From Klebsiella phage ZCKP1, in sequence record MH252123.1: 64,000 nt of DNA; one strand, written 5' to 3'. Positions 4,296 through 39,531 of this stretch are shown here, in pieces. The notes under the pieces were generated by a model. It had not been told where the DNA came from. It ran no database searches and saw only the letters and a list, made by a program, of their open reading frames with translations. Both the position numbers and the translations under genes were made by a program. The first letter of the stretch is position 1. Each line of letters starts with the position of its first letter.

Positions 4296-4307
4296 TTTGT
4301 TCTCCTG

Positions 4308-4586
4308 TTAAAATGGTTCGTTAGTCTCCATCATATATTCTGCTTCTAGTTCTTCCATGTGCTTTCTAAATTGGAAAGCAATTTCTGCTACAGTTACATT
4401 TAAATCTTTTTCAAAAACTTCTGTAGATCCTTCATAAAAACGAATACCGTCAATTAAAAGCCCTCCGTGGTAATCCCAATCGCTTTCACGAGAAAGTGGA
4501 TTAGGTTCTTCATAATAGTAATCCACCTCCACGACCAAGGCTTTCCCGTTACGAGTGGTGTATTCAAAATCAAAAGTGTTAATCAT
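4308..4586 (-). CDS. hypothetical protein, 92 aa
   Basis: ORF track; start/stop overlap with neighbouring genes. Confidence 0.45.
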   Translation of the reverse strand: MINTFDFEYTTRNGKALVVEVDYYYEEPNPLSRESDWDYHGGLLIDGIRFYEGSTEVFEKDLNVTVAEIAFQFRKHMEELEAEYMMETNEPF

Positions 4587-5530
4587 TATAGCTCCTCAAA
4601 TAAAAGTCTACGACGCTCATTCAACACATCAATGTGATAATGAGTCCTGACATACTTAGCTAATGCTAATCCTTTCTCCATGCAAACATCGGGAGCACTT
4701 AATAAGTATTCCGTAATATCTTTCCACTCGGAAGGTGTTTCAGCAAAGAATAACAAATCTTTAAACTCTTGTGTATGATAATTCTCACGAGGAGAGCAGA
4801 TTAAAGGTAAACCCTTAGCACCTGCCTCAAGAATTTTAAGATTGCTTTTTGCATTATTAAACACGTTATCGATCAATGGTGCAAGACTGATTTGATGACC
4901 ATCGTAAGATTCCATGTAGTTGGCATATGGTCTTACACCTTCATAAACACAAGTTGGTGCTACATTTTCTCTGATTACAGACCATTCACGACTACTTAAA
5001 ACTTCGGAATCCCTACGAAAACCACATATTGTAAGATCTTTACCAAAATCGGGCAAGATAGCCAAATCTTGTTTATGTGTTTCACTTCCAGCCCAGACTA
5101 ATGGAGTTTTGGAGTAGCGATCACGGGTCAACACAAATTGACCTTCATCGTAAGGAAGTCCATTAGGGATTATGTGCACATTATCATTGTATTGTGAAAG
5201 TTCAACTTGCAAGGCAGGTGTCGTAGTTGTAACAAGATCACTGTGCTCTAAAAACCATTTTAAATGTTCACGAATACCTGATTCAAAAATACCTTCTAAC
5301 ATGTGTCCTTTTGGAATAACTAAAGAGTCATCCAAATCCATAACCATTTTAAAGCCCAGGTTTTTAAGGGCTAAAAAGCCCTCTTTACCTTTTGTTGGCA
5401 CTCCGTTAAAAACGAAAACGTTGTGTTTAGGTTGTGAAGAGAACTGCCTTGAGTAAGGCAGCACTACCCTATGGAAATCGCAGACACTATAATTGATTCC
5501 GTTACGATTGTCAAGAATTATTTGTCCCAT
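4586..5530 (-). CDS. glycosyltransferase-like protein (GT-B type C-terminal motif), paralog 1
   Basis: 314 aa; SNLKILEAGAKGLPLICSP resembles the GT1/GT4 sugar-donor motif; paralog of 5538..6485. Confidence 0.45.
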   Translation of the reverse strand: MGQIILDNRNGINYSVCDFHRVVLPYSRQFSSQPKHNVFVFNGVPTKGKEGFLALKNLGFKMVMDLDDSLVIPKGHMLEGIFESGIREHLKWFLEHSDLVTTTTPALQVELSQYNDNVHIIPNGLPYDEGQFVLTRDRYSKTPLVWAGSETHKQDLAILPDFGKDLTICGFRRDSEVLSSREWSVIRENVAPTCVYEGVRPYANYMESYDGHQISLAPLIDNVFNNAKSNLKILEAGAKGLPLICSPRENYHTQEFKDLLFFAETPSEWKDITEYLLSAPDVCMEKGLALAKYVRTHYHIDVLNERRRLLFEEL

Positions 5531-5537
5531 ACTTCAC

Positions 5538-6485
5538 CTACAAACTTTCAATGACCTGGCGTCGCAATTCGTTTGCATCTGCCAGATTATAATGTGTTCG
5601 AACATGTTCCGCTAAGAACAAGCCGCGATCTTCCCGATAGTTCGGATTGCGAAGAAGCTTAACAATTTCGTAATGCCATTCTGCTTTATTCTCTGCATAA
5701 GCAACAGCGCGAGCATCTACAGGGTTAAAATAAGGTAATACCTTAGAACAAACAATCGGAATACCTTTTGCCCCAGCTTCAAGGATTTTGAGATTACTTT
5801 TACAATTATTAAAATCATTATCTACCAAAGGAGCTATAGCAATAGCATGACTTTCGTAAACACTCATGTAATTATCTAAATCTTTTACAGCAGCTTTATA
5901 TTTGGCATTTGGTAAATTTCTGCGAATCTTAATCCACTCTTGTCCTGTGATGCTTTGTGATGCTTCATATCCCGCAATAGTAAGAAGTTCATCATCGAAA
6001 GTATTAGAGACTAGTCGTAAGTCGGGTTCGTGACTAGCACCGCCAGCCCATACAACAGGGGTACCGGATGAACGATCATTTGACAAAGTGAATTGTCCAC
6101 TATCAAAAGGAAGTGCATTTCGGATCACAACAACATTCCTATTTAAGTGACGGATCTTATATGCCAAATATTCCGTAGTCACAATGACCACATCAGCAAG
6201 CTTAATCATAGCCACAATAGCGTGAGTGTTTGACTCATATAAACTTGCTAAATAATGTTCTGGATTAAGTTGGTAGAAATCATCTAAATCTACAACAATT
6301 TTAACACCTTGACGTTTCAGGGACAGAACATATTCTGCACCTTTAGAATGAATACGGTTAAACACGACAACATCTTTCTTAGGCTGAAAATTATTGTTGT
6401 TAAATGGTATAACAATACGATGATAATCACAACCGCTGTGAGGTTTTGCATCAATTTTCAGTTTAGTCCATTTTTTATTTGACAT
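5538..6485 (-). CDS. glycosyltransferase-like protein, paralog 2
   Basis: paralog of 4586..5530 (VVWAGGASHEPDL, SNLKILEAGAKGIPIV); start moved to the ATG at 6485, which has an AGGAGG RBS (track start 6524 has none). Confidence 0.45.
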   Translation of the reverse strand: MSNKKWTKLKIDAKPHSGCDYHRIVIPFNNNNFQPKKDVVVFNRIHSKGAEYVLSLKRQGVKIVVDLDDFYQLNPEHYLASLYESNTHAIVAMIKLADVVIVTTEYLAYKIRHLNRNVVVIRNALPFDSGQFTLSNDRSSGTPVVWAGGASHEPDLRLVSNTFDDELLTIAGYEASQSITGQEWIKIRRNLPNAKYKAAVKDLDNYMSVYESHAIAIAPLVDNDFNNCKSNLKILEAGAKGIPIVCSKVLPYFNPVDARAVAYAENKAEWHYEIVKLLRNPNYREDRGLFLAEHVRTHYNLADANELRRQVIESL

Positions 6486-7158
6486 GTGCCAGTGCCTCCT
6501 CATAAGAAATTCGGATTTTCCCATTTTTAATATCTTCTAAAGACGCTTTATATTCTTCCCAGTTAATGCCAATAGCAGCTTCTTTCTCTTCTTTTGTCAG
6601 GTTAGCAAAAGGCATAGGATTGTTTCCAAAAACATCGTCTGGGTGGATATAAGCCATGATACGAAGTGGACAAGGTATTGCCTGAATACCCTGATTCAAA
6701 CCAGCAGCTTTCAAACGGTGTACCCATTCAGCATCTTCAAAACCATAGCCGTGAGTGTAAGGGCGGAAATAACCCATCTTCTCAACAACGGCACGAGAAT
6801 ACATTGCAAATTGACACATTGCAAGCTCCCAGAGAATAACTTCTCCTTTACTCCCAACAACTTTATCTTTGAAATACTCCGGCATACCAAAGAAATCCCA
6901 TCCTCCAGAGACAGCTTGATCTACAAAATATGTTTCCCATCCCTCTATGATTGGGTAGCAATCGTCGTCAAAAATAAACCAATAATCATAACCTTCTTCA
7001 TAAAACTGGTGCATAAGTTCATTCCTGGCATAAGCTACACCTTTACGATCTGGATCGTTGAATACTCGAAAATCTGCACGTGGATCTGTTACAAGGTAGT
7101 CTTTAAGTGGACGGACACCGACAGTGATAACACCCACTCCGATTTTAATATTTTCCAT
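6475..7158 (-). CDS. glycosyltransferase, GT-A fold (family 2-like)
   Basis: 227 aa; KGVAYARNE and DxD motif FDDDCY; RBS AGGAGAGA. Confidence 0.55.
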   Translation of the reverse strand: MENIKIGVGVITVGVRPLKDYLVTDPRADFRVFNDPDRKGVAYARNELMHQFYEEGYDYWFIFDDDCYPIIEGWETYFVDQAVSGGWDFFGMPEYFKDKVVGSKGEVILWELAMCQFAMYSRAVVEKMGYFRPYTHGYGFEDAEWVHRLKAAGLNQGIQAIPCPLRIMAYIHPDDVFGNNPMPFANLTKEEKEAAIGINWEEYKASLEDIKNGKIRISYEEALAHVK

Positions 7159-7166
7159 TTTCTCTC

Positions 7167-7730
7167 CTAAATAGTTTTACTGTGATCGTGACAGTGTAAT
7201 AAATGATGTATAGACCGTTGAGGATTTGTTTGACCTAACCTGTAAATGTGAAACAGATACATTCCCCGCATCAATCCTAACCTCTTTCCTTTTTCATGTA
7301 AAGTGCGAGAGAAAATTAAGTCGAATTGGATAGATTTTTCTTCGAAAGGAATTTCATTCCACAATGATTTTCTAAAAAGCAAAAAGAAACCTGCCAGAGG
7401 TGTTCCGAAAGGAACTTCTTCAACACTCACTTTATGATATTCTCTTGCAATCTTAGCATATTCTATATGGTTTAGAATATCTGGATCATCGTTAATTTGG
7501 TTAGAGAAAAGCTGATAACCACTGCCTAACCTGTTACAAGTTGCACCTATTACATCAAAAGGCGGGTTTGACATAACAAGCTCTTCAAGCATAGATGGTT
7601 GATCAGGTAGGAGGAACATTGTATCGGTATCTCTTAAACACACCCAACTATCATCTGGAAGAACGGCAATGGCTTCATTGATAGCCTTGCCGATATTTCC
7701 TGTCAGATAGGGAGTAATATAATAAATCAT
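7167..7730 (-). CDS. putative GT-A fold glycosyltransferase
   Basis: 187 aa; N-terminal NIGKAINEAI...CLRDTDTM (DxD); RBS GGAGGGGAG. Confidence 0.4.
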   Translation of the reverse strand: MIYYITPYLTGNIGKAINEAIAVLPDDSWVCLRDTDTMFLLPDQPSMLEELVMSNPPFDVIGATCNRLGSGYQLFSNQINDDPDILNHIEYAKIAREYHKVSVEEVPFGTPLAGFFLLFRKSLWNEIPFEEKSIQFDLIFSRTLHEKGKRLGLMRGMYLFHIYRLGQTNPQRSIHHLLHCHDHSKTI

Positions 7731-8431: not shown

Positions 8432-8953
8432 TTAACTCCCCTTTGGTAGATAGAAACCATGCACTTTATCTCGATAAACAAGACGCATATCACGTTCCCA
8501 GTGTGTCCTTATATTCCGTTTCTTGAAGTATAGAGCACCTTTAGTAACATCTAAAACAGACCGCAATTCAGGAAAATGTTTCTCTAAATAAAGTAAACGC
8601 TCCGCTATTGCTTTTGCTTCCTGCCACTTATCTTTCTCTGTTACGTTAAAAGTTTTCGCATATGAGAATTGCCCTTTCTGGAACAAGACTTCTCTGACTG
8701 TGTTAGGGAAGTAGGTATCATTTCTTCTGTTGATTACCACATTCCCAACGGCATTCATTCCTTTTTTACCCAGACCGCGACCTTCTGCGTAAATTGCACA
8801 AGCTAATAGAATTTTATCATTATATTGCTTTGTACATTTGTGAACTACTTTAGCGGTTTTTACGTTTGCAGCTTCGGCTTTCGCCACAACAGGTGTAAAT
8901 GTAAAAGCAGTTAAGGATAGTAACGCAACTGTTACAAAGTTTTTTATCAGCAA
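8432..8953 (-). CDS. exported cell-wall hydrolase (SleB/CwlJ-like, Hydrolase_2 family) with N-terminal signal peptide; candidate endolysin
   Basis: TTG start with GGAGG RBS; signal peptide LLSLTAFTFTPVVAKA; motif LACAIYAEGRG...AVGNVVINR...FPNTV...FQKGQF. Confidence 0.75.
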   Translation of the reverse strand: MLIKNFVTVALLSLTAFTFTPVVAKAEAANVKTAKVVHKCTKQYNDKILLACAIYAEGRGLGKKGMNAVGNVVINRRNDTYFPNTVREVLFQKGQFSYAKTFNVTEKDKWQEAKAIAERLLYLEKHFPELRSVLDVTKGALYFKKRNIRTHWERDMRLVYRDKVHGFYLPKGS

Positions 8954-9052: not shown

Positions 9053-9655
9053 TTATGGACATTCATACCATTCTTTTTTACCACCGAAGGCCATCACCAC
9101 ATCACAAATATCCAGACCCGCTTTGCCTACACCATATGCTTTCAGCTTCCATTCCCCATCTTCACGAACCAAGGAAGCCACGTGGCAGATTGTGTTGCCA
9201 GCTACTTCAGGAGCCAGGAAGTCAAAATCCAGAATTTCCACATTGCGCTCGGAGTCGAAGATTTTAAGCATACCTTCAGAAGCATGACCAAAACGTTTCA
9301 GACCTGTATCATCATCAATGGTCAGAACAAAGGCAATCTCTTGTGCATCAGGGGAGATTTTAGCCAGAGTAATATCAATCTGCTCCATGCTGCCAGTTCC
9401 ATCACGAACATCGTCACCAGCGAAGGTAGAACGTTCAGGATCAAACTTGTTAGCATAGCAAACCAGATGACGTGCAGACAGCATTTCAGGATTGCCAGCG
9501 GCATTGTGACGACAAACCAGTGCACTTACATCCAGATCCAGTTTAGAATCAGATTTCCAAGAGAATTCCAGGCGCAGTTCTTTCAGAGCCGGAGCAACTT
9601 TCTTCAGGGAAATTTTTTCGCTAGAGCCTTTTTTCAGGGAAATTTTATCAGTCAT
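9053..9655 (-). CDS. TerD-domain stress protein
   Basis: 200 aa, co-linear with E. coli TerD: ISLKK, LDLDVSALVC, GDDVRDGTG...IDITL, EIAFVLTI, EDGEWKLKAYGVG. Confidence 0.8.
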   Translation of the reverse strand: MTDKISLKKGSSEKISLKKVAPALKELRLEFSWKSDSKLDLDVSALVCRHNAAGNPEMLSARHLVCYANKFDPERSTFAGDDVRDGTGSMEQIDITLAKISPDAQEIAFVLTIDDDTGLKRFGHASEGMLKIFDSERNVEILDFDFLAPEVAGNTICHVASLVREDGEWKLKAYGVGKAGLDICDVVMAFGGKKEWYECP

Positions 9656-9670
9656 CTTTTGTCTCCTCTA

Positions 9671-9940
9671 TTATTTAAGTGTAATACCAGTTACAGTCAA
9701 TTCTACTTCCAAAAGCTTAGATGTGTTTTGGATTGATACTAATTGTGCATGATGGTTTAGTTCTACAGCAGAATAATCATTTTCCCCATCGTCTACTTTT
9801 AAATAAACAATGATTTCACTAAGGTCTAAACCATTTTCGTCAAATGCATTTTCATAGACGAAAGTATCTCCTACATCCAAATCTTTAATGGTAAGGCATC
9901 GTTTATTTACTTTTTGCTCATCAATTTCGAAGTTTAACAC
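9671..9940 (-). CDS. hypothetical small protein, 89 aa (paralog of 10962..11240)
   Basis: shared DLDVGxTFxYxxAxxExGLD motif. Confidence 0.5.
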   Translation of the reverse strand: MLNFEIDEQKVNKRCLTIKDLDVGDTFVYENAFDENGLDLSEIIVYLKVDDGENDYSAVELNHHAQLVSIQNTSKLLEVELTVTGITLK

Positions 9941-10169
9941 TTCTTCCTCCTAATGTTATCTCCGGTTTGTATATACGAAGAATTATAGCATTTTCATTTT
10001 CTTTGTCAACCCATTCTTCATAATCAGGCCATACATGAATCTCTACTCTACTTACAATATCTTCCATTCGCACAGTCCCAATGAAATACTCTTTGAGACT
10101 GCGCATAATGAAAGCTTCTCTCTCACGCCAATAATTTTCTATGACTTGAGAGGCAAGCTCGTCGATCAT
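9921..10169 (-). CDS. hypothetical protein, 82 aa
   Basis: ORF track. Confidence 0.4.
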   Translation of the reverse strand: MIDELASQVIENYWREREAFIMRSLKEYFIGTVRMEDIVSRVEIHVWPDYEEWVDKENENAIILRIYKPEITLGGRSVKLRN

Positions 10170-10960
10170 TTTTTAGCACCTACTTTAACAACCCACTCTC
10201 CGAACTCTTCAGATAAGAGTTTGTCATAAAGTTCTGAATCTGTCAAGTCTAAATCTTTAATGCCAATAAAACCAACATTATCATAAGCATTTGCCAGTTC
10301 TTTCAGGAAGCCAAACTTCTCATTACCAACGCCAACCATGAACCAATAAATAGGTTTATTCTTATTCTCTTCGATAAGATGACGAACAGCACTAGGATCA
10401 CCATTCTCACCATCAGTCTGGAAGAATACAACACCAGGGGTAACGTCAGCACCTGGTTCAGATACAGCTACAACTTTTTCACGCTCTACAGACACTGTTT
10501 CAGTTTTACCAAGCAGACGATTAAAGAAGCCTTTCTTTGGAGCCTCCTCTTGCACCACTTGTTTAGTGGTAATATATTTAGTAACAGTACCAAAATACTC
10601 ATCGTAGATATCCGCCATTACAGGGGCGTAATTTGTTCCACCTCCGATACGAACATTACGCATACATTTACCAACATAGTCATCGTAAACATCTGCTGTT
10701 GCTGGAGTAAGCTCTTGGGAACTCGTATTGAAGGCCCACATATCAATTTGTTGATTATCGTCGAACAGCATACCAAAAGGAAGCAGTTTACCTACAAAAT
10801 CACTCACTACCCCACTAGAATATAGACCATGCATACTACCAGAAATATCTAGAGCACATGCTACACGAAGAACAATCTTACCTTCATTCAGGTTCTTATT
10901 CTTTTTCAGAGAGAAAGCAAGGTTTTCTTGACGTTTTTTCAGGCTGATTTTCTCGGACAT
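10166..10960 (-). CDS. von Willebrand factor A (vWA) domain protein, TerY-like
   Basis: 264 aa; MIDAS motif DISGSM; N-terminus begins KISLKK as in TerD proteins. Confidence 0.7.
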   Translation of the reverse strand: MSEKISLKKRQENLAFSLKKNKNLNEGKIVLRVACALDISGSMHGLYSSGVVSDFVGKLLPFGMLFDDNQQIDMWAFNTSSQELTPATADVYDDYVGKCMRNVRIGGGTNYAPVMADIYDEYFGTVTKYITTKQVVQEEAPKKGFFNRLLGKTETVSVEREKVVAVSEPGADVTPGVVFFQTDGENGDPSAVRHLIEENKNKPIYWFMVGVGNEKFGFLKELANAYDNVGFIGIKDLDLTDSELYDKLLSEEFGEWVVKVGAKK

Positions 10961-10961
10961 A

Positions 10962-11240
10962 TTATTTCTCCTTCTTAAGTGTAATATTGGTAACTTCTAA
11001 ATCTACTTCCACCATATTTGTATCTGGTGGGATGCAATGAGTATAGCCTCGTTGTGCTAGTGATCCATTAATACAGATCGCACTGTTTGTGGAATTTTTA
11101 ATGAACACCAAGTTACGGTAGGTATCCAACCCTGCGTCTTCATAGGCATCATAATACATGAATGTGGCCCCTACGTCAAGATCTTCGAAAGCAATAGGTA
11201 AATCCTGACTTTTTTCTTCTTGAATATTGAATCTAAACAC
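10962..11240 (-). CDS. hypothetical small protein (paralog of 9671..9940)
   Basis: probable GTG start at 11240 (GGAGG 5 nt upstream); the track's longer ORF to 11306 overlaps the upstream gene by 74 nt. Confidence 0.45.
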   Translation of the reverse strand: MFRFNIQEEKSQDLPIAFEDLDVGATFMYYDAYEDAGLDTYRNLVFIKNSTNSAICINGSLAQRGYTHCIPPDTNMVEVDLEVTNITLKKEK

Positions 11241-11796
11241 GCATACCTCCTCTACCAATTTTGAAGCCCAAATCGTAAGCTTCCTTAGTGATCTTTTGTA
11301 ACTCACTTATAGGAAGTGTTACAAGAGGATCATCTTCTTCAATTTCCATCTTGTCATCTTCTGTTTCAATGAGAGTATTATGCACTTTGTGATAAGGGTT
11401 GTCAACACGTTTAAACTTATTCTTTTCTGTGCTGAAAAAACAATCTGGATCTTCTTCACCATCCCCCCAACCTTGGTTAGGATCTCCGTCAGATTGTTCT
11501 GTAGGGATTTCACCTGTAAAGTACTCTTCCAGCACCATAGCAATACCGTCTCTTGGATTTGAGGAATGCATTAAATCACAAACCTTACCCCAATCCGTAG
11601 CCCATTCGAACCGTTCACGAACGCCATTTTCACCCTCTTTTCCAGAGAAAACACAACCATAACTATCATAGTTGCCATACATCTCTTCAATAACAACACC
11701 GTCCTTCAAAAGAAAGAGGTAGCAAGGTGATCCGTCGAAAGAAGTAGAAAGGGCAGCTTTGCCCGATTCTTTGCACAAAAAGCTAAAACAACCCAT
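11233..11796 (-). CDS. hypothetical protein, 187 aa
   Basis: ORF track. Confidence 0.5.
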   Translation of the reverse strand: MGCFSFLCKESGKAALSTSFDGSPCYLFLLKDGVVIEEMYGNYDSYGCVFSGKEGENGVRERFEWATDWGKVCDLMHSSNPRDGIAMVLEEYFTGEIPTEQSDGDPNQGWGDGEEDPDCFFSTEKNKFKRVDNPYHKVHNTLIETEDDKMEIEEDDPLVTLPISELQKITKEAYDLGFKIGRGGMRV

Positions 11797-11999
11797 TACA
11801 AACCCTCCTTCAGATTATCAAGAGCTACAGTGGTTTCACAAGAGTCTCCATAAGTTTTATGATGTTCCAGAAAAGCTTCGGGTCCACCCCAGTCATTATC
11901 TTGTGTATTCCAGCCATCAATAAAAGCATCTTCAATGATTGTGATCAGTTCTTGTCGGGTTAACTGGATAATATTAGGATCGTTATCGTAGTTAAACAT
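11796..11999 (-). CDS. hypothetical protein, 67 aa
   Basis: ORF track; RBS GAGGAGGAAG. Confidence 0.45.
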   Translation of the reverse strand: MFNYDNDPNIIQLTRQELITIIEDAFIDGWNTQDNDWGGPEAFLEHHKTYGDSCETTVALDNLKEGL

Positions 12000-12165
12000 C
12001 TTCTTCCTCCTCTAAAATATGGAACCCGTAATTACAATAATCCTGAAAGGTTTCGTGCGCAAGATCTTCTATATCCTCTTGAGACATATCATCTTCAATT
12101 TCGATATCCACAACCTCATTGCATCCACACCAAGCAGTTTCAATATTCACTCGTAATATTTTCAT
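11992..12165 (-). CDS. unlisted small ORF, 57 aa (MKILRVNIETAWCGCNEV...)
   Basis: ATG overlaps the upstream stop (TAATG); RBS GAGGAGGAG; below the track's 60-aa cut-off. Confidence 0.35.
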   Translation of the reverse strand: MKILRVNIETAWCGCNEVVDIEIEDDMSQEDIEDLAHETFQDYCNYGFHILEEEEDV

Positions 12166-12359
12166 TACTCCTCCTCATTGAAGTCAATATCTGCAAGGAG
12201 TTCGAATTTACGGAAGTTACGACAACCTTCATAAATATAACAATCACGACAAACTGCTAGAACACTTGGGGGATATATACCTCCCATCGGTGCGAATCGT
12301 TTTTCGTCATCATAACGGACACCAATGTCTTCATCAATTATATAGATACGGATTCTCAT
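12165..12359 (-). CDS. hypothetical small Cys-containing protein, 64 aa
   Basis: ORF track. Confidence 0.4.
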   Translation of the reverse strand: MRIRIYIIDEDIGVRYDDEKRFAPMGGIYPPSVLAVCRDCYIYEGCRNFRKFELLADIDFNEEE

Positions 12360-13468
12360 TTACCAAGCCCTCGTTTCACAGCAGCTACCATCCCGTCTTC
12401 CAGAGATTGAACTTCATTAATATAATCAACACGAGCAGCACGGGCTTCCGTATTGATGCGGTTAGTTTCTTCCAACATCTTAACCAAGTTTTCCTGATCG
12501 TGACGCAGAGTTTCAATATCCAACACTTGACGGTTAGCCAGTGCTGCTGCTTCGATCTGATTCTGTGTGGCAAGATCGCTACCCAGTTTAATTGCCAGGT
12601 TAAATTCATCAAGAACGTTATTCTGCGTCTCTGCTGCTTTCATTTGACGTAAGCTCTCGATATACATTGAGAAGTTAGCAGAGTAAGCAGGAATAACATT
12701 ATTTACTATGTTACGCGCAGATCGCATTAAGCTTGCAGAAACTTTTTGCATACCTTGTACACGCGGTCCCATTTGGACACACAGTAGGCGCAATGCTTTT
12801 AAATCTGCAATACGAATCTCCAGAAGATCCAAAGTATCTCGGATCACTTGTCGCTGTTCTACTGCATCTTCTGGAAGAGCAGCCAAAGCTTGTTCTTCTT
12901 TTTCATAGGTTGCTGTTAGAAGCTGCATATCTCGGTTCAAACTTGCAGCATATTGTCCAATAGCTTGATGTAGCTTTTCAAGATATACCAAGGAATCTTC
13001 TTCTTTGCGAATATCCATTTGAAGGTTCTTTACCAACTCTTCAATACGGTTATTAACATTATCAAACTCCCCAAACAGGTCTTCTTTCATACCCATAACT
13101 TTTTTAATGAGTTTAGTAATACCCTTGCTTTGTTTAATAGAGTTTGGATCAAGTTGTTTTGCCTGTTTAATCAAAGCTGTGAGTCGTTCACTCATCTGAT
13201 CGCCTTGATTACTACGTTGATGTTTTAATACCTCGGCATTCAAGGAACGCAAGGTTGTTCCTGCCTCTGCCCCAATCTCTTCGATCTCTTGTCGGGTCAT
13301 AGAAGGCAAAACTGGAACTTCTTGCGGTGCTGCTGGTGCATAAACAGGACTGGCATCTAACACACTTGGAGCGAATACAGATTTACTTGCATCTGTTGTT
13401 GCAGCGAATACACTCATTTCAGACTTCTTCTGACCACCAGTAGCTGCTTTTAAAAATGGACTTGTCAT
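12356..13468 (-). CDS. TelA-like (toxic anion resistance / KlaA family) coiled-coil protein, tentative
   Basis: 370 aa, long helical Q/L/E-rich protein of TelA size within a cluster that also has TerD, TerY-like and TerC genes. Confidence 0.5.
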   Translation of the reverse strand: MTSPFLKAATGGQKKSEMSVFAATTDASKSVFAPSVLDASPVYAPAAPQEVPVLPSMTRQEIEEIGAEAGTTLRSLNAEVLKHQRSNQGDQMSERLTALIKQAKQLDPNSIKQSKGITKLIKKVMGMKEDLFGEFDNVNNRIEELVKNLQMDIRKEEDSLVYLEKLHQAIGQYAASLNRDMQLLTATYEKEEQALAALPEDAVEQRQVIRDTLDLLEIRIADLKALRLLCVQMGPRVQGMQKVSASLMRSARNIVNNVIPAYSANFSMYIESLRQMKAAETQNNVLDEFNLAIKLGSDLATQNQIEAAALANRQVLDIETLRHDQENLVKMLEETNRINTEARAARVDYINEVQSLEDGMVAAVKRGLGK

Positions 13469-14055
13469 TCTTCATTCTCCTCTTCTGCATCTCTTATATA
13501 TGGTGAAACACCGTACTCTTTAGCTACTTTAACCCAATCATCCCATTTATACAACCATAATTTTCCTTCAGTTCCTTCTTTATCTGATTTCAACCACATG
13601 TTAGGTTGCTTACCTGGGTACATGCGATTAGGTTTACGATTATAACCTCTAACACATCTTGTCGCAAACCTATCTACCAGAACAAGAACATATTTATATT
13701 CGTGGTTCAACGGCTCTTTGGAAGTGGCTTTAGGATTAGCCCCTAATTCTGCTGCCAGTTTTTGCCAATGAGCACCATGCCTACTAAACTTACCCATACA
13801 ACCATCAATAGCGTGAGCAATTTCGTGCTTCATTGTATCCACGATCATATCTCTTGTGGAGTTCTTATGCAAGTGCCAATTTACAACAACAATCTTATCT
13901 CGGTAGTTGCACCAACCAAAAGAGTTATTCACTTTGTTTCTAACGCAAGCTTTATATCCTGCTTCACGTAACATGTTGTAGTAAACAGGAAAATCTTCTT
14001 TTATTTCCTGCATCACTTCCCACCACAAAAGTTGCAAGTCTCTCTCGGTATGCAT
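13465..14055 (-). CDS. SprT-like zinc metallopeptidase domain protein
   Basis: 196 aa; HExxH motif (MKHEIAHAI) plus downstream Cys/His. Confidence 0.5.
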   Translation of the reverse strand: MHTERDLQLLWWEVMQEIKEDFPVYYNMLREAGYKACVRNKVNNSFGWCNYRDKIVVVNWHLHKNSTRDMIVDTMKHEIAHAIDGCMGKFSRHGAHWQKLAAELGANPKATSKEPLNHEYKYVLVLVDRFATRCVRGYNRKPNRMYPGKQPNMWLKSDKEGTEGKLWLYKWDDWVKVAKEYGVSPYIRDAEEENEE

Positions 14056-14058
14056 AAC

Positions 14059-14652
14059 TTACACCTTAAAAGTGAAATGCGTGGTCGTGGCTTCAAAATC
14101 AGGGCCAGATAAACGTGCACTGAAATCTGAAATATTTGTAATTAAAAAGCTTTTATGCATACCTAACACAGCCACGCTTTCAATATCTTCTACTAACATT
14201 TCAATCATGTTAGAAACATGGCTGAACGTAGGGTTTTGTTTTTTGATGGTGTAGAAAGAAAGATTCTCACCTGCTGTATAAGATACCTCTTCAAAATCTT
14301 TAATCGTATATTGTGTGCCATCAGTAAAGAAAATGGTAGCTTTATTAGTAGCACGTTTCTTGTTTTTTGGTCCTTTTTTACGTTTACTGCGAGTAGGCAA
14401 ACCGTTTGGGAACACCATAGCTACAAATTCTTCAGGAGAAACCTCCTTACCGAAATCATAACCATAAGAAACAGCATCTATAAACTCGTCGTCTTCATTT
14501 TTAAAATAATGAAAATAAGGCCAATTTGAGAGATTATCAAGCATCTTATGCTCATCCACAGCAGAGAACGTATCCCTCAAAGCGCGTGTAATTTGCAAAG
14601 CATTAGGCAAACTTTTAACACCTGTAATGGAAGTACGAATAGAAATTGTCAT
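14059..14652 (-). CDS. hypothetical protein, 197 aa, with a basic patch (RSKRKKGPKNKKR)
   Basis: ORF track. Confidence 0.5.
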   Translation of the reverse strand: MTISIRTSITGVKSLPNALQITRALRDTFSAVDEHKMLDNLSNWPYFHYFKNEDDEFIDAVSYGYDFGKEVSPEEFVAMVFPNGLPTRSKRKKGPKNKKRATNKATIFFTDGTQYTIKDFEEVSYTAGENLSFYTIKKQNPTFSHVSNMIEMLVEDIESVAVLGMHKSFLITNISDFSARLSGPDFEATTTHFTFKV

Positions 14653-14666
14653 TGTTTTTCTCCTTA

Positions 14667-15104
14667 TTAACGTCGCTTGCTACGAGATGAACTCTTTTTA
14701 CTTAAAGGGCTATTGTAAGATTTACGAGTTGTATAGCTACTATTTGTTTTAAAAGTTTGTCTCGGCTTTTCATAAGTTTTTATCTCTTGTTTAGGCTTAC
14801 CATAAAAATTAGTTTTCGGTTTAGGTGTATTATAATGCTTATTAATAATCGTTCTGTTATCGTTATAATCCCCACTGTTACGATTACTACCACCACTCAT
14901 CATATGCCCTAACAACATACCTGTAGCAAACTCACCAACACCGCTACTACTAGAACCGCCACCATTGTTGATAATAGTTGTATCTCCGTCAGATCCTTGT
15001 TGAGCGTATTGTTGAGGAGGTTGTTGGTATTGTGCAGGATTTGTTTCATCCTCGCAAGCTGTTAAAAAGATACAACCAATTAAAATCAGGGCTAGTTTTT
15101 TCAT
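14667..15104 (-). CDS. Gly/Ser-rich lipoprotein
   Basis: start refined to MKKLALILIGCIFLTAC (lipobox LTAC) with RBS GAGGAAAG. Confidence 0.55.
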   Translation of the reverse strand: MKKLALILIGCIFLTACEDETNPAQYQQPPQQYAQQGSDGDTTIINNGGGSSSSGVGEFATGMLLGHMMSGGSNRNSGDYNDNRTIINKHYNTPKPKTNFYGKPKQEIKTYEKPRQTFKTNSSYTTRKSYNSPLSKKSSSRSKRR

Positions 15105-15287
15105 ATTTGCTTTCCTCATTTTGACTATTAATACATCTGTGTTTGAAATCTCCAGAGAAGCAATAAAGTTGCTCTCCATCTCGGTATAAACTTACTTTAC
15201 TGCCGTTGATTACGCTTGTCAATACAAAAATTACAACAAACAACCCTATTGCAAAACAAATATTTTCAAACACAATCAACAAGTATT

Positions 15288-15638
15288 TCATTTTAAAAAT
15301 ACCTCATCATCAGTTTCATTATCCCAGAAGAACAAATCCCAACCATTCGGATCATTCCATTTGGCTGCTGGAGAAGTCCATATTTGTTCGATATCAATAT
15401 TCAAAACTTCACCGTTTCGTTTTGAAACAGCTTTAGTTAATTCCCAATGAGATACAGGCTCTACTTCCCCTGAACCACTCCCACAACAAGCTACCACGTT
15501 AGGAGGCAACTTAATTGGATCTTTGGTCACGATCATAACGCTTACCCCAGGGTAAACTTTTGAAAGATAATCTAAAACGTAATCCACATCACCAGATAAA
15601 TCCCAAACAAGTTCTTGAATTTCATCAAAATTATTCAT
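15288..15638 (-). CDS. hypothetical protein, 116 aa
   Basis: ORF track. Confidence 0.45.
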   Translation of the reverse strand: MNNFDEIQELVWDLSGDVDYVLDYLSKVYPGVSVMIVTKDPIKLPPNVVACCGSGSGEVEPVSHWELTKAVSKRNGEVLNIDIEQIWTSPAAKWNDPNGWDLFFWDNETDDEVFLK

Positions 15639-15680
15639 AAGTCTCTCCTATAAAATAGCCTCCCGAAGGAGGCTCATCTA

Positions 15681-16655
15681 TTAAACAGCAGCTTCTTCTT
15701 TTTCAGGGAAGATAAAGCTTGCAATAACACCAAGAGCTAATGTGCCTAGAACAATCATCAGACTTACGTTAGGGGAAATATCATGCGGGAGGAATGACCA
15801 CTTGGCATGAAGTGTTTCACCGAACGGGTGATACATAAGTTTAGCACCGACAAATACCAGAACCACAGCAACAGCCTTCTCTAAGTGAACCAGATATTTC
15901 ACAGCCACACTTAACACAAAGAAAAGTGCACGTAAACCAAGAACAGCCATCAGCATTGCAGAATAAACTAGCAGAGGTTCTTGTGTCACACCGATCACAG
16001 CCGGAACTGAATCAAAAGAGAAGACAATATCTGTAAGCTCAATAACAAACACACAAAGAAGAGCAGGAGTTGCATATTTAATACCATTCTTAATGGTGAT
16101 GAACTTTTCACCATCCAGTGCATTGTGCACAGGCAGAACTTTACCTACTAAACGAACAGCCCAATGTTTAGAGTAATCAATATCCTCTTCTTCGTCACCA
16201 CCTTTGATGATAGCCACGGCAGACCAAGCTACAATCAAACCGAACAACACTTGGACCGACCAATGAAGGTTAAACAAAGCGGTCCCTGCTGCAACAAAAA
16301 TACCTCGGAAGACAATGGCTCCTGCAATCCCCCAAAGTAAAATCTTATGTTGGAGATGTGTGCTCTTAATTCCAAAGCTTGCAAAAATTGCCATGAACAC
16401 CATCAGGTTATCTACAGAAAGACTTTTTTCCAACACATAGCCACTTAGGAAAAGCGCGGCAAACTCTTTACCATGTTCTACCCAAATGAATGCGTAATAT
16501 CCTAAAGCTAAAGCAATCCAAAAAACAGACCAAAGCAAAGCAGATTTAATTCCAATTTCTTTATTCTCTTTATGACCAAAGAAATCGATACCAATAGACA
16601 ATGCCAAAATACCAACTAAAACAACTACATCAATAATTGGGAAACCGAGTTGCAT
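15681..16655 (-). CDS. terC: TerC-family integral membrane protein
   Basis: 324 aa, multiple TM helices; signature motifs LEKSLSVDNLMVF and ELTDIVFSFDSVPAVIGV. Confidence 0.8.
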   Translation of the reverse strand: MQLGFPIIDVVVLVGILALSIGIDFFGHKENKEIGIKSALLWSVFWIALALGYYAFIWVEHGKEFAALFLSGYVLEKSLSVDNLMVFMAIFASFGIKSTHLQHKILLWGIAGAIVFRGIFVAAGTALFNLHWSVQVLFGLIVAWSAVAIIKGGDEEEDIDYSKHWAVRLVGKVLPVHNALDGEKFITIKNGIKYATPALLCVFVIELTDIVFSFDSVPAVIGVTQEPLLVYSAMLMAVLGLRALFFVLSVAVKYLVHLEKAVAVVLVFVGAKLMYHPFGETLHAKWSFLPHDISPNVSLMIVLGTLALGVIASFIFPEKEEAAV

Positions 16656-16671
16656 TCTTTTCTCCTCTCTT

Positions 16672-16734
16672 TGCGGGGGAACTATTCCCCCCGCTTCATG
16701 TGATATATCTTACTCTTTTTAAGAACTATGTCAA
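16672..16734 (-). promoter_or_regulatory. minus-strand promoter and 5' hairpin unit upstream of terC: TTGACA-N16-TAAGAT-atatcac-atgaa-GCGGGGGGAAtagTTCCCCCGC
   Basis: reverse complement of 16672..16734 reproduces the array-unit architecture; terC ATG lies 16 nt downstream. Confidence 0.6.
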
Positions 16735-16737
16735 CAC

Positions 16738-16959
16738 TTATTTTGTTGAATGAGAGGAAAAGATTCCTCGTAATACCGCCAAAATAAACGAAACACAAAC
16801 CACGGTCCAGAAGGTTACTGGGACAGTGATATCTGCATGACCCATAACTTCAGCAACATAGTTGTAAGCCAGCAACAGTAACCAAGCTGGAATCAAACTA
16901 AGCATAAAAGCAATAACAAAAAAGCTTACCACTGCAACAATACCTGCAAAAACACCCAT
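16738..16959 (-). CDS. small membrane protein, 73 aa
   Basis: two predicted TM helices. Confidence 0.45.
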   Translation of the reverse strand: MGVFAGIVAVVSFFVIAFMLSLIPAWLLLLAYNYVAEVMGHADITVPVTFWTVVCVSFILAVLRGIFSSHSTK

Positions 16960-16971
16960 ACTAATCTCCTC

Positions 16972-17445
16972 TTAAAGTTTATAAATAGTCACATCGTGAC
17001 CTGTTTTTACTAAAGTTTCTTCAATCATCACTTGGATGATAGCCCAATTACCTCCAGCATGTCCCGCTCCAATCATAGGTAAACCGATCTTACATTTTTG
17101 GTCACGGAGAAGCAAATCATTAGCCATAGCTATTAGTGCATCGTACAAGGCATCATAGTCCAACTGACGACCTTTAGCATTATATCCGTAACGGTATTGC
17201 CCGTAGAGATTATATACCAAAGGGTCTGATTGTTCGTCTGGCACCCCTAAACTAAAAGAACCTAACTTACTTTGATCACCAGCCATTGTGTCTAAATCTG
17301 CCGCATATGCATAAGGGAATGCTCGTTTAATTTGCGGAGCAATTCCTGCCCCCATATTACACATACAATTGCAACAATGAGCAATAACAGTTACTTCACC
17401 TGCTTTAGCGGCATCAATAAGATTACCTGTTTTCATTTTAAGCAT
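16972..17445 (-). CDS. macro-domain protein (ADP-ribose binding / ADP-ribosyl hydrolase-like)
   Basis: start refined to the ATG at 17445 (RBS AAGGAG); VIAHCCNCMCNMGAGIAPQI and GLPMIGAGHAGGNW match the macro-domain Gly-rich loops. Confidence 0.6.
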   Translation of the reverse strand: MLKMKTGNLIDAAKAGEVTVIAHCCNCMCNMGAGIAPQIKRAFPYAYAADLDTMAGDQSKLGSFSLGVPDEQSDPLVYNLYGQYRYGYNAKGRQLDYDALYDALIAMANDLLLRDQKCKIGLPMIGAGHAGGNWAIIQVMIEETLVKTGHDVTIYKL

Positions 17446-17458
17446 TTTTAGCTCCTTA

Positions 17459-18286
17459 TTACAGAATGTGTTGTTTTGTGTAACGATCCAAGAATTCAAA
17501 GTTTTCAGCATACTTTGAAATTCGGTTGTAACCTTCTCCCAAACATCCGAAGAAAAGTTGCTCTACATAGTAGTGTGGCAATTGGCTAAGAATGATTTTG
17601 AAGTCTTCGTGATTTTGGCCCATAAGATACTTAATAGGACGAACAAGACACTGTGCATCACGTTCTTCATTAATCATTTTAACAAACGCTTCTGGTGTAT
17701 TAATATAATTAAAATTCAGTTTAGCTTCGGTATCTGCTTGATTACCTTCATATTTTGCAAAATACAAGAAGTAAACATCATTTTTAACTTGATTTTCATC
17801 AAGGATCTCAATCAGTTTGTCTTCATGAGTTCCAGTGATATTTACATCATCAATAAACACAAGCTTCTTATCACCCCAGAATTCTTTGTTGCAGTAGAAT
17901 GTATCCCCATCAATAAGTTTCTTACGACTAGCTTTATCCAAGAAACCATAATCGTTGATATAGCTAACTTTACGATGAATAATATCTAGTTCTGCTGAAC
18001 GACCTTGATCATATTGTGATTGCAACATATTAAAGTAATTAATAAAATGATCTGTCATCATTGTTGCAGCATTATGCACATGGTTGTAAGGAGAAGGAAT
18101 GATAACAAATTGTTCCCCAATATGTTTCATTGCCACTTGAGCAAAAAACTGAAGTGCCAATTCTTTACCCATACGACGCGCAGCCTGGTTACTACCAAAT
18201 TTCAATTTTGAATAATCTTTAATATCAAAAGTAGCAGTTTCCAGGTCATCAAATTTATTTGCAAAAATTTGAGTTTGATTACGCAT
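17459..18286 (-). CDS. phosphoribosyltransferase (type I PRTase) domain protein
   Basis: 275 aa; PRPP-binding loop VFIDDVNITGTHEDK. Confidence 0.55.
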   Translation of the reverse strand: MRNQTQIFANKFDDLETATFDIKDYSKLKFGSNQAARRMGKELALQFFAQVAMKHIGEQFVIIPSPYNHVHNAATMMTDHFINYFNMLQSQYDQGRSAELDIIHRKVSYINDYGFLDKASRKKLIDGDTFYCNKEFWGDKKLVFIDDVNITGTHEDKLIEILDENQVKNDVYFLYFAKYEGNQADTEAKLNFNYINTPEAFVKMINEERDAQCLVRPIKYLMGQNHEDFKIILSQLPHYYVEQLFFGCLGEGYNRISKYAENFEFLDRYTKQHIL

Positions 18287-18935
18287 TTACAATTTCTCCT
18301 CTTTTAAGTTTCTCTAGTAAGTCGTTAGGGTTCTTAATATGACAGAAGTTAATACCTATGTCAACACATTTACCATCAAATTCTTCGCTGTCCCCAACAT
18401 GTAAAATCTCTTCAGCCTTCAAAGGAATGCTTGAATATGTGGCGGTCCTAACAAAGAATCTAGGATCTGGTTTACACAACAGATGTTCGTCTGAAAAATG
18501 CATAAATTCAAAACAATTCCAACTGTCGAACATGCAAGCACGACGCAAAATATCCCCAGATATAAAATTAGTATTGCTTTTAATACTAAGATCATATTTA
18601 CCAGACAAGTATAGCAAACAAACTGGCAAATCTAAAGCAATATGTGGAGGAAATTTAAGAAACCATTGCTCACACTCAAAACGCATTTGTGCAGATTCTA
18701 CAGGGGTTAAACCTATCTTTCTTCCCAACATATTCCATGCATATGCTACACCTTCTGCACACCCATTTAGTGCAGCATTATCCATAATTTCTTTGGCATC
18801 TTTATATGCTTCTTTTGCCGCACGTTCAGACATTCTACCATATGTAGCAATAGTGTGCGTACGTGCATCTGCATAGTTTTGATTGGCAGAAATAAGAGTA
18901 TTCCATACATCAAAAGAAATATGTTTTATTGTCAT
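18279..18935 (-). CDS. HAD-superfamily phosphatase
   Basis: motif I FDVWNTL near the N-terminus (start refined to MTIKH); motif IV VGDSEEFD. Confidence 0.55.
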   Translation of the reverse strand: MTIKHISFDVWNTLISANQNYADARTHTIATYGRMSERAAKEAYKDAKEIMDNAALNGCAEGVAYAWNMLGRKIGLTPVESAQMRFECEQWFLKFPPHIALDLPVCLLYLSGKYDLSIKSNTNFISGDILRRACMFDSWNCFEFMHFSDEHLLCKPDPRFFVRTATYSSIPLKAEEILHVGDSEEFDGKCVDIGINFCHIKNPNDLLEKLKRGEIVNA

Positions 18936-38839: not shown

Positions 38840-38899
38840 TTGACAACAAACAACAACCTGATAAGATGTATCACATAGGGCGGGAAGTGGTTTCCCGCT
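38840..38899 (+). promoter_or_regulatory. promoter and 5' hairpin unit P1: TTGACA-N16-TAAGAT, then GGGCGGGAA-gtggt-TTCCCGC
   Basis: near-consensus -35 and -10; GC hairpin starts 2-3 nt after the predicted +1. Confidence 0.6.
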
Positions 38900-38923
38900 C
38901 GTAACAGAAGAGAGATTATCATC

Positions 38924-39196
38924 ATGGCATCATATAGCGCAACAATGATCGTAGCTGGCACAACTGGTAAACCTATGAGCGGTGGCGGATCTTTCGCTAA
39001 TATCAATATTGACGGGCGTTTATCCCTGGACGCAGCGATCGCCATTGCACGGGAAACATTTAAGAAAGAATGTAATTTCAACAAGCAAGATTATCTCGGT
39101 TTCGCTATTGAAAAAACCGCGCGCTTTGTTGATTATAAAAGCCCGAAAATGGTTGACACTACATTAAAAGCGCAAGATGTAGCGTTTTTGCTTTAA
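38924..39196 (+). CDS. array ORF 2, 90 aa
   Basis: promoter and hairpin unit P1; RBS AGAGAG. Confidence 0.55.
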   Translation: MASYSATMIVAGTTGKPMSGGGSFANINIDGRLSLDAAIAIARETFKKECNFNKQDYLGFAIEKTARFVDYKSPKMVDTTLKAQDVAFLL

Positions 39197-39199
39197 GGC

Positions 39200-39255
39200 T
39201 TGACATTAACGAATAATTTGTTAATATGTTACATAAAGCGGGAATAGTTCCCGCT
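39200..39255 (+). promoter_or_regulatory. unit P2: TTGACA-N16-TAATAT, then AGCGGGAA-tag-TTCCCGCT
   Basis: seen in sequence. Confidence 0.6.
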
Positions 39256-39272
39256 GTTTGTAAGGTGGTAGA

Positions 39273-39530
39273 ATGTTTTACATCAAATTAAAAGGTCACG
39301 TGATCGCGTTCAAAGATAACGCTTTTTACAGATTAGCAAAATATGCGTTAATACATCCCCACTATGTTTATATAAGGGGGCGTGATGAAATAAATATCTT
39401 TGATCAAACAACATGCGAAAACATCGAGATCCGCAAGGTTGGCGTACGTGATTATCGTACATCTTTCTACCCTTGCAAGGATTCAGCAAGTCTTTTTAAA
39501 GTATGCCAATTGTTGAAAAAAGGTGGTTAA
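39273..39530 (+). CDS. array ORF 3, 85 aa
   Basis: unit P2; RBS AAGGTGG. Confidence 0.55.
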   Translation: MFYIKLKGHVIAFKDNAFYRLAKYALIHPHYVYIRGRDEINIFDQTTCENIEIRKVGVRDYRTSFYPCKDSASLFKVCQLLKKGG

Positions 39531-39531
39531 T

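Follow-up and report, generated by a model that had tools for sequence, protein, structure and literature searches.

Klebsiella phage ZCKP1 (sequence record MH252123.1) carries, at positions 9,053 to 18,935 of the 64,000-nucleotide stretch analysed here (the window), a run of genes that resemble the Ter stress-response genes of bacteria and plasmids. The locus raises the question of whether these genes form a genuine Ter system with the enzyme genes set among them, and what such a system might do for a virulent phage. A first-pass annotation made from the sequence alone had proposed a Ter-like cluster interleaved with a phosphoribosyltransferase (PRTase) and a HAD phosphatase. All open reading frames (ORFs) that it named were recovered on the minus strand at the positions it gave (Table 1), and hidden Markov model searches with Pfam supported its TerD, TerC and TelA assignments. 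The general Pfam scan covered 20 ORFs of the region, and phmmer searches covered all six-frame ORFs of the 64-kb window. Sequence comparison confirms that the phage encodes a predicted reduced, phage-adapted Ter system together with two linked enzymes.

The ~10-kb stretch is 98.5% identical over its full length to Escherichia phages nieznany, ESCO13 and phAPEC8_ev052 and to Phapecoctavirus DIJ07P1, with 62 phage records spanning 80% or more of its length; we therefore assign the window to Phapecoctavirus, phAPEC8-like virulent myoviruses of ~150 kb. The ter block occupies the minus-strand arm, with a primase/helicase, four glycosyltransferases and an endolysin-like gene at lower coordinates and NrdG, NrdD and helicase genes at higher ones, and the sign of the GC skew switches near 31-32 kb of the window. 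The genes are by no means absent from relatives: homologues of TerD, TerC, the vWA protein and the PRTase were each found in ~105-107 Escherichia-phage records, which is consistent with their being universal in this phage group.

Each of the four non-enzymatic proteins could be placed in a Ter family. The TerD-domain protein aligns along its whole length (residues 5-183 with residues 3-180) to Klebsiella pneumoniae TerD (PDB 2KXT, E 1.5e-15), in line with the co-linearity earlier claimed with E. coli TerD, and it retains the DLD motif (LDLDVSA). With TerZ, TerD, TerE and TerF of the Enterobacter plasmid discussed below as phmmer queries, it was the one TerD-domain ORF found in the window (9053-9655), TerE matching at E 4.5e-19. 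The vWA protein, first labelled TerY-like, is 28% identical (E 9e-21) to residues 182-408, the C-terminal half, of plasmid TerF; this alignment, together with the Pfam family matched, makes it a TerF-type and not a TerY-type protein. Its metal ion-dependent adhesion site (MIDAS) DxSxS motif is intact (LDISGSM). TelA had been offered as a weaker call; the identification stands and the Pfam match is in fact a strong one, and a search for relatives of known structure returned none at useful E-values. TerC scores 319 bits on the TerC/Alx model TIGR03718 (cut-off 246 bits) and carries both acidic signature motifs (EKSLSVDN and ELTDIVFSFDS), in agreement with the initial call; it is at most ~50% identical to plasmid TerC/Alx proteins and 48% identical to TerC of the Enterobacter plasmid.

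The two enzymes are encoded side by side. The PRTase belongs to the Pfam family PRTase_3, and its phosphoribosyl pyrophosphate (PRPP) loop, DDVxITGTHE, shows no variation across 17 diverse homologues; a search for solved structures found no close relative and no useful E-values. The HAD gene lies directly upstream and overlaps the PRTase_3 start by 8 nt. Its product matches HAD models below their cut-offs throughout (Pfam E 1.4e-3; NCBIfam HAD-IA models 1.5e-8 to 7e-3, the best curated being the REG-2-like HAD-IA model TIGR02252 at E 1.5e-8). HAD motifs I-IV are nonetheless conserved across 42 homologues, with D16, S127, K162, D189 and D194 invariant or nearly so, and the family shares an invariant Arg32 and an S127-N128 pair. 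To compare neighbourhoods we fetched 48 loci around PRTase_3 homologues that came from IMG/VR, GTDB genomes and the protein database. In 47 of the 48, the gene immediately upstream encodes a HAD homologue, in the same order and often overlapping PRTase_3, and HAD-PRTase_3 is thus described here as a predicted obligate enzyme pair.

Evidence that the six genes belong together comes from conservation and from recurrent co-clustering. Within the region, conservation is highest for TerD, vWA, TelA, TerC and PRTase_3 (63-87% identity to phi92-type and Klebsiella-type relatives; TerD is 81% identical to its phi92-type orthologue), while the interleaved small ORFs, the SprT-like gene and ORF201 are weakly conserved or missing in relatives. 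The ratio of nonsynonymous to synonymous substitution rates (dN/dS) for the five is ~0.04-0.17 (TerD 0.12, vWA 0.16-0.17, TerC 0.05-0.14, PRTase_3 0.07-0.11) versus 0.09-0.10 for NrdD/NrdG, the ratios being rough owing to saturated dS. On unrelated viral contigs, TelA, the TerF-type vWA, TerC, HAD, PRTase_3 and TerD lie within 7-12 kb in at least five gene orders: TelA-vWA-...-TerC-HAD-PRT3-TerD in L004/L015 and L009/L019, TelA-HAD-PRT3-vWA-TerC-TerD in L020, and TerC-vWA-TerD-TerD-TelA-HAD-PRT3 in L022, with partial sets of the six families in L023 and L027. A bacterial locus from Pedococcus (L048) clusters all six families, and three loci from Bacteroidales metagenome-assembled genomes (MAGs; L041, L045, L046) hold TerD, HAD and PRTase_3 together, L045 with TerC as well. 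Co-occurrence that survives shuffling of gene order is a classic signature of functional linkage. Low dN/dS, the enzyme pair and recurrent co-clustering therefore mark the six-gene set as a selected functional module, as judged from these comparisons, and the proposal of genuine Ter homologues linked to a PRTase and a HAD protein holds.

Table 1. Features of the ter block and adjoining sequence, in window coordinates.
Feature	Position	Strand	Evidence or remark
TerD-domain protein, 200 aa	9053..9655	-	Pfam PF02342, E 3.2e-28, 98.9 bits (cut-off 25.3)
Small protein orf89, 89 aa	9671..9940	-	Directly upstream of terD; paralogue of 10962-11306
Perfect sigma-70 consensus promoter (putative function)	9982..10009	-	TTGACA-16-TG-TATAAT, 12/12; inside orf82, upstream of orf89-terD
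vWA protein, 264 aa, stand-alone, TerF C-terminal type	10166..10960	-	Pfam PF10138 vWA-TerF-like, E 3e-37
Small protein orf114, up to 114 aa	10962..11306	-	Directly upstream of vWA gene; paralogue of 9671-9940
TelA family protein, 370 aa	12356..13468	-	Pfam PF05816, E 3.2e-33
SprT-like zinc metallopeptidase (predicted)	13465..14055	-	Pfam PF10263, E 4e-9, 36.7 bits (cut-off 25.6); HEIAH motif
Conserved protein, 197 aa	14059..14652	-	phrog_27550, 1.6e-136
Predicted lipoprotein, 145 aa from MKKLAL start	14667..15104	-	Lipobox LTAC (FLTAC), Gly-rich segment; start per phage SF1-1 annotation
Terminator-like hairpin	15657..15674	-	AGCCTCCTTCGGGAGGCT plus T-rich tail; starts 7 nt past terC stop codon
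TerC/Alx-family inner-membrane cation transporter (predicted), 324 aa	15681..16655	-	Pfam PF03741, E 3e-40
Promoter-hairpin unit before terC	16673..16734	-	TTGACA-16-TAAGAT at 16734-16707; stem-loop of 5'-untranslated region at 16694-16673
Small hydrophobic protein, 73 aa, probably membrane	16738..16959	-	Between macro gene and terC; conserved in Stephanstirmvirinae-type loci
Macrodomain protein, 157 aa, TARG1/DarG/SCO6735 clade	16972..17445	-	Pfam Macro E 9.6e-5, just at threshold
PRTase_3, ComF-like phosphoribosyltransferase, 275 aa	17459..18286	-	Pfam PF15610, E 1.7e-41
HAD-fold hydrolase, 218 aa	18279..18935	-	Sub-threshold HAD matches; phrog_14393 'hydrolase'
ORF201, 201 aa	18937..19542	-	First gene of HAD-PRTase_3-macro string; only in Phapecoctavirus-like genomes

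The first-pass annotation had likened this neighbourhood to the ter regions of IncHI plasmids and bacteria. As a plasmid-type reference we took one locus, that of the Enterobacter IncFIB/IncFII plasmid NZ_CP096189.1 (L049). It resembles the phage set in TerC, the TerD domain and the C-terminus of TerF, and in having a PRTase and a HAD-fold enzyme nearby. In contrast to the phage, it encodes TerB, four stand-alone TerD-family proteins (TerZ, TerA, TerD and TerE), a TerF that fuses TerD and vWA domains, and a divergent operon of ATPgrasp_Ter, PRTase_2+TRSP, an S6PP-like HAD, StiP+PELOTA, a C-C bond lyase, DUF4236 and TerW; it lacks TelA, which the phage set has. When the plasmid ter proteins were searched with phmmer against the window, only a single TerD, TerC and vWA were matched. 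Copies of TerB, ATP-grasp_Ter, StiP, the C-C lyase or PRTase_2 hidden elsewhere in the window were considered, and phmmer found none. The hallmarks of a canonical terZABCDEF system, namely TerB, several TerD paralogues with a TerF fusion, and a divergent biosynthetic operon, are all missing from the phage set, which is evidently not a copy of a plasmid or IncHI-type ter operon. Its PRTase_3 and HAD are likewise best regarded as analogous, not orthologous, to the plasmid PRTase_2+TRSP and S6PP-like HAD. What survives of the plasmid parallel is the association of Ter homologues with a PRTase and a HAD protein; the operon itself, with its other PRTase and HAD families and its TerB, ATP-grasp_Ter, StiP and C-C lyase, does not carry over.

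A closer counterpart is bacterial. The chromosome of Pedococcus sp. KACC 23699 (L048) holds the same six families within ~11 kb, including PRTase_3 with an adjacent upstream HAD gene. The bacterial loci differ from the phage set in having several TerD paralogues and, in Pedococcus, two PRTase_3 copies, and their PRTase_3 proteins are 21-35% identical to the phage protein. Anantharaman et al. 2012, as summarised in PMC7824862, define a functional hub of Ter systems, and its elements are found here: TerD, TerC, TelA with a TerF-type vWA, a PRTase with a HAD protein, and co-clustering across unrelated genomes. By family content, the phage cluster corresponds to this TerD/TelA/TerC/vWA/HAD/PRTase_3 hub as seen in Pedococcus and partly in the Bacteroidales MAGs.

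Neither the genes nor the idea of a phage Ter system is new, contrary to what the initial description implied. In GenBank, near-identical phages are already annotated with TelA-like, TerC, TerD family, VWA, phosphoribosyltransferase, HAD and macro domain proteins, and 'tellurite resistance' genes appear in genome papers on Phapecoctavirus (PMC13096147). In essence the same hypothesis was published by Iyer, Anantharaman, Krishnan, Burroughs and Aravind (Iyer et al. 2021, Viruses 13:63, PMC7824862), who described Ter systems in jumbo 'and certain other related smaller tailed phages'. Among the cases they give are the Acinetobacter jumbo phage vB_AbaM_ME3, with a PRTase and HAD for 'signal biosynthesis', and Caulobacter jumbo phages that have TerD, TerC and TerF together with TelA. 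In their model the PRTase and HAD produce a nucleoside or nucleotide signal that is sensed by TerD and TerB, TerC alters membrane transport, and TelA and the TerF-type vWA form sub-membrane structures; the proposed roles are action against superinfecting phages (superinfection exclusion) and xenobiotic resistance. Component classes, functional proposal and the setting in large virulent tailed phages are all shared with the window, although that paper centres on jumbo phages and names phAPEC8- and phi92-type phages nowhere. Caulobacter and Brevundimonas phages were recovered as homologue carriers in our searches with window proteins. ME3 was not among the listed tblastn matches to PRTase_3, the sole Acinetobacter record counted being most likely ABPW7 (96.8% identical to the window), and the ME3 PRTase may therefore belong to another family.

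Smaller sets occur in other virulent phages. Klebsiella phiKp34 carries terC, terF-vWA, two terD genes and telA, and Pseudomonas phiPsa374-like Otagovirus carries terC, terD, terF and telA; in both cases the authors state that the function in infection is not known. The same four non-enzymatic families cluster in these phages, their TelA and vWA homologues being 21-29% identical to those of the window by tblastn. Otagovirus, Asteriusvirus and RaK2-like phages were recovered with TelA (Otagovirus also with vWA), and none of them is among the PRTase_3 matches listed; nor does the organism list of that tblastn search show Pseudomonas phages, Otagovirus included. Relative to phiKp34 and phiPsa374, the Phapecoctavirus set adds HAD-PRTase_3, a macrodomain, an SprT-like protease and the small paralogues. 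The observation is real, lies well above chance, and is ordinary and already known; the first-pass interpretation holds in outline and is less exact in its details, and the functional role of the phage genes is a predicted one.

We consider it possible, with a probability of roughly 45%, that the phage Ter module makes the infected cell refractory to further insults directed at the envelope. Host RNA polymerase would transcribe the ter genes early, and PRTase_3 with its HAD partner would make a ribosylated small molecule from PRPP. TerD, vWA and TelA would assemble with TerC at the inner membrane and alter divalent-cation flux and the state of the envelope, such that the cell would resist DNA injection by superinfecting phages and pore-forming colicins while the phage replicates. 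Membrane-depolarising abortive-infection effectors might perhaps be covered too, which is our own extension. Resistance of the infected cell to envelope attack is proposed because it parallels the phenotypes of plasmid ter operons. Such phenotypes of cellular ter systems are described by Whelan et al. 1995, as quoted in PMC12054061, and in bioRxiv 2021.03.02.433402, and K. pneumoniae from which terC has been deleted is less resistant to Zn, Mn and phage (PMC12054061). Possible host-type promoters accompany two of the genes. The 12/12 promoter upstream of orf89-terD has a 12/12 counterpart at the corresponding place in a 79%-type relative (L013), in which an 11/12 sigma-70 promoter upstream of orf114-vWA (11405-11377) is conserved as well.

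Several observations weigh against such an envelope function. The biochemistry of Ter systems is itself unresolved, and our literature searches found no experiment on any phage ter gene. Early expression of the ter genes is read from promoter matches only, and a sigma-70 promoter scan returned 55 sites versus 40.7 +/- 6.2 expected by shuffling. TerB gave no phmmer match at E <= 0.1 in the window and no Pfam match among the scanned ORFs. The phage has a single TerD paralogue versus several in the units that confer tellurite resistance in E. coli (TerZCD or TerACD, each with more than one TerD-family protein, as quoted in PMC12054061), and in that one TerD the acidic GDGDDE loop, which binds Ca, is partly degenerate and reads GTGSME. 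The enzyme pair is also found away from ter genes: HAD-PRTase_3 occurs without nearby TerD, TelA or TerC in Rhizobium phages, T4-like contigs and Rhizobiaceae genomes, and in Caulobacter and Brevundimonas phages 20-36 kb separate it from the ter genes.

The chemistry of the HAD partner is a further point on that side. An Asp at the position two after the nucleophile (DxDxT) is the general acid/base needed for HAD phosphatase chemistry. Motif I of the phage family reads SFDxWxTL, with Trp at this Asp+2 position in 39 of the 42 homologues. Conserved motifs I-IV thus uphold the HAD fold of the earlier 'HAD phosphatase' label and the missing Asp+2 speaks against its phosphatase part; a nucleotide-to-nucleoside step, and with it the 'nucleoside-like metabolite' scheme, is therefore not assured. 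The combination of Trp at Asp+2 with an invariant Arg32 is atypical for a phosphatase, and as far as we found it has not been remarked on before. Because the partner HAD is without the phosphatase general acid, a more specific version of the envelope proposal can be framed, in which the six-gene set would be a portable, self-sufficient minimal Ter machine used early as a membrane shield, with HAD-PRTase_3 making or processing a different PRPP-derived ligand and not following a base-to-nucleotide-to-nucleoside route. Taken whole, we regard this version as unlikely.

A different emphasis is suggested by terC, which is predicted to form a self-contained promoter-hairpin-terminator cassette. The hairpin 3' of its promoter, GCGGGGGGAAtagTTCCCCCGC, is followed by a Shine-Dalgarno sequence and the gene, giving a leader of ~50 nt with a simple hairpin. 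On the plus strand, in the interval 38.8-46.1 kb (38840-46094), at least 14 further TTGACA promoters precede small genes, and each has a comparable GC-rich stem-loop ~10 nt downstream (consensus ~GGGCGGGAA...TTCCCGCC) and then a Shine-Dalgarno sequence. These units confirm the earlier remark that terC is driven by one of the phage's own promoter-hairpin units; in the minus-arm ter region a similar unit was found only at terC. A Klebsiella-type relative (L012) keeps promoter and hairpin before terC with a different stem sequence. No Rfam match was obtained at E <= 1 between positions 8500 and 20500, so that the yybP-ykoY Mn2+ riboswitch that controls cellular alx-type genes appears to be absent. 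Among Phapecoctavirus records terC seems to behave as an exchangeable cassette. Phage Mt1B1_P17 has a TerC only 73% identical to that of the window alongside a PRTase_3 of 99.6% and a TerD of 100% identity; the corresponding values are 72.8% for TerC and 99.3% for PRTase_3 in SKA64, and 73.1% for TerC and 99.7% for TelA in BI-EHEC.

The locus might serve metal homeostasis and not exclusion: an Alx-type TerC, free of the Mn riboswitch, would export Mn2+ or deliver Mn2+, Ca2+ or Zn2+ across the inner membrane, TerD and the MIDAS-containing vWA would sense cations, and metals would be tuned for phage or envelope enzymes. The TerC/Alx model on which the protein scores above cut-off is a 'metal homeostasis' model, and the riboswitch-free leader and independent cassette fit this view, as does the presence of TerC in ~73-92 kb Proteus, Aeromonas, Pectobacterium and Vibrio phages, genera not among the TerD and TelA matches listed. 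According to PMC12096827 and PMC10197570, TerC proteins metalate Mn-dependent exoenzymes and Alx exports Mn2+, and terC of K. pneumoniae affects Zn and Mn resistance (PMC12054061). However, this explanation does not say why TelA, vWA and HAD-PRTase_3 accompany TerC and TerD, with gene order shuffled, across several phage lineages, and no metal-dependent client enzyme was identified. It also overlaps the envelope proposal instead of excluding it; as a replacement for that proposal we judge it unlikely, if the most serious of the competitors.

The enzyme pair could instead be a passenger. In this alternative HAD-PRTase_3, perhaps with the macrodomain, would be a separate nucleotide-metabolism, RNA-repair or base-modification module that happens to lie next to the ter genes in the early/replication arm and is functionally unconnected with them. 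The pair of the window adjoins NrdD and NrdG, and in Rhizobium phage RHph_TM30 it stands next to NMNAT/NUDIX, DHFR and PurA, with no TerD, TelA or TerC within 10 kb. T4-like contigs hint at a second context: in L006 (10967-12562) and L008 (7152-8555) a DUF2828/DUF7788 gene, of a type we take to be vWA-related, adjoins HAD-PRTase_3, with an RNA ligase near and TerD, TelA and TerC missing, and the pair in L006 is also near a 2H-SAK match, a CCA-adding enzyme and PTH2. The separation of more than 20 kb in Caulobacter phages and the carriage of the pair by Rhizobiaceae genomes that lack ter genes point the same way. Against this, the pair is embedded in or flanked by TerD, TerC, TelA or vWA genes in at least five viral architectures and in L041, L045, L046 and L048, and even the Rhizobium phages encode a TerF-like vWA protein at another site in their genomes. 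Ter neighbourhoods were themselves the source from which Pfam defined PRTase_3. A functional tie between the pair and the ter genes is therefore supported by these neighbourhoods, the linkage not being absolute, and an independent module appears rather improbable.

The pair was also seen in Rhizobium, Sinorhizobium and Ensifer genomes and plasmids (L029-L040), at 37-41% identity and without ter genes. In Ensifer aridi (L031, 10868-11587) a gene for a ClpP-like protease follows HAD-PRTase_3. No functional clue emerged from the Ensifer neighbours, which comprise this ClpP-like gene along with a LysE transporter and aminotransferases.

The remaining genes of the block bear on a third alternative, that the module or parts of it antagonise host immunity by titrating or mimicking host Ter proteins, by destroying or counterfeiting a nucleotide-derived signal, or by reversing ADP-ribosylation through the macrodomain. 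The predicted macrodomain has counterparts of known structure: it matches 5E3B (SCO6735) at 1.1e-12, the Thermus aquaticus DarG macrodomain 5M31 at 9e-7 and TARG1 at ~4e-6, and thus falls in a clade that removes ADP-ribose from protein and DNA. DarG models are hit far under their equivalog cut-offs (NCBIfam 6.5e-9, PADLOC 2.6e-10); the protein covers positions 2-147 of 338 at 35.5 bits versus a 250-bit cut-off and is not a full-length DarG with its DarT-binding C-terminal domain, and Pfam and PADLOC scans detected no DarT among the neighbouring ORFs. This stand-alone macrodomain is a candidate eraser of ADP-ribose marks on DNA or protein, for instance those placed by DarT-type defences.

ORF201 offers a second possible counter-defence component, with matches to PADLOC 'AbiEi' antitoxin models (E 5e-13). 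Its HxHxT and ExHxK motifs are invariant, and it is modelled with confidence as a tandem alpha+beta protein (predicted local distance difference test score 82). Foldseek placed it near uncharacterised proteins encoded by Rheinheimera, Acinetobacter ME3, Aeromonas and Sinorhizobium phages and by the giant eukaryotic viruses Klosneuvirus, Bodo saltans virus and Fadolivirus. Pfam and fold searches lent the AbiEi match no support, and no solved structural relative was found, neither a solved AbiEi nor another characterised protein. The host-type promoter matches in the region are consistent with early expression without showing it. However, the macrodomain and ORF201 are lineage-specific and lie outside the recurrent six-gene set, and we saw no evidence of sponge-like features. 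Record host fields show that common laboratory strains such as K-12 support these phages. To our knowledge, K-12 has no ter operon. A counter-defence role for the module is, in our estimate, less probable still than an unlinked enzyme pair.

Literal tellurite resistance, the label given by GenBank and PHROG, is highly implausible, since TerB and the additional TerD paralogues of terZABCDE are not in the window, a virulent phage has no obvious gain from it, and the authors of the phiPsa374 paper conclude likewise for their phage.

Other genes of the block stand outside the six-gene core. The earlier reading of an SprT-like metallopeptidase is borne out by an above-threshold Pfam match and the HEIAH motif; the gene was found only in L001, L012 and L013, that is, in Phapecoctavirus- and Klebsiella-type loci, and is absent from phi92-type relatives. 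A 4-nt overlap between its stop and the telA start hints at translational coupling. The neighbouring 197-aa protein has no match in Pfam, NCBIfam or PADLOC, and its gene sits between terC and telA in all Stephanstirmvirinae-type loci. The lipoprotein noted at first pass has a lipobox visible in the sequence, and homologues occur near HAD-PRTase_3 in L006, L007 and L022, matches that may reflect low-complexity bias. The two small proteins that had been called beta-rich paralogues, orf89 and orf114, are indeed related (33% identity, E 3e-13 by BLASTP); among the fetched loci their homologues are confined to Stephanstirmvirinae-type ones, orf89 matched no Pfam family, and both are possible adaptors or partners of Ter proteins. 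On this distribution we class the macrodomain, the SprT-like protease, ORF201 and the small ORFs as accessories specific to the lineage and not as part of the core.

Further afield, the annotation of phage SF1-1 places four consecutive glycosyltransferase genes (~4000-7730) and an endolysin-like gene (8432-8953), all on the minus strand, directly downstream of the ter block. By sequence, phages recorded as Campylobacter phage (B15, A150 and others), Acinetobacter phage vB_AbaM_ABPW7 and Pseudomonas phage PsgM04F belong to the E. coli-type Stephanstirmvirinae, which points to mislabelled hosts or to contamination. A 'Proteobacteria bacterium' MAG contains, on the 13-kb contig JAEZZU010000022.1 (L028), a PRTase_3 100% identical to that of the window, and this contig is therefore probably a phage contig binned into the MAG.

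Ter systems are widespread in bacteria, virulence plasmids and phages and are linked to phage, colicin, metal and tellurite resistance, and their biochemistry has been unresolved for ~30 years. As a genomic observation the present locus adds little, the genes being annotated and the idea of superinfection exclusion being in print. The increments are that a six-gene core is separable from its accessories, that its enzymes are unlike those of the plasmid operon examined, that terC appears to be an exchangeable cassette without a riboswitch, and that the HAD partner lacks Asp+2. A stripped-down phage version, with one TerD, TerC, vWA, TelA and one enzyme pair, in an easily manipulated group of E. 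coli phages offers a convenient experimental entry. If the set should prove to be a minimal Ter machine, its presence in phages of E. coli that are genetically tractable, among them phi92-type phages isolated on the K-12 strain, could reveal the role of the Ter proteins.

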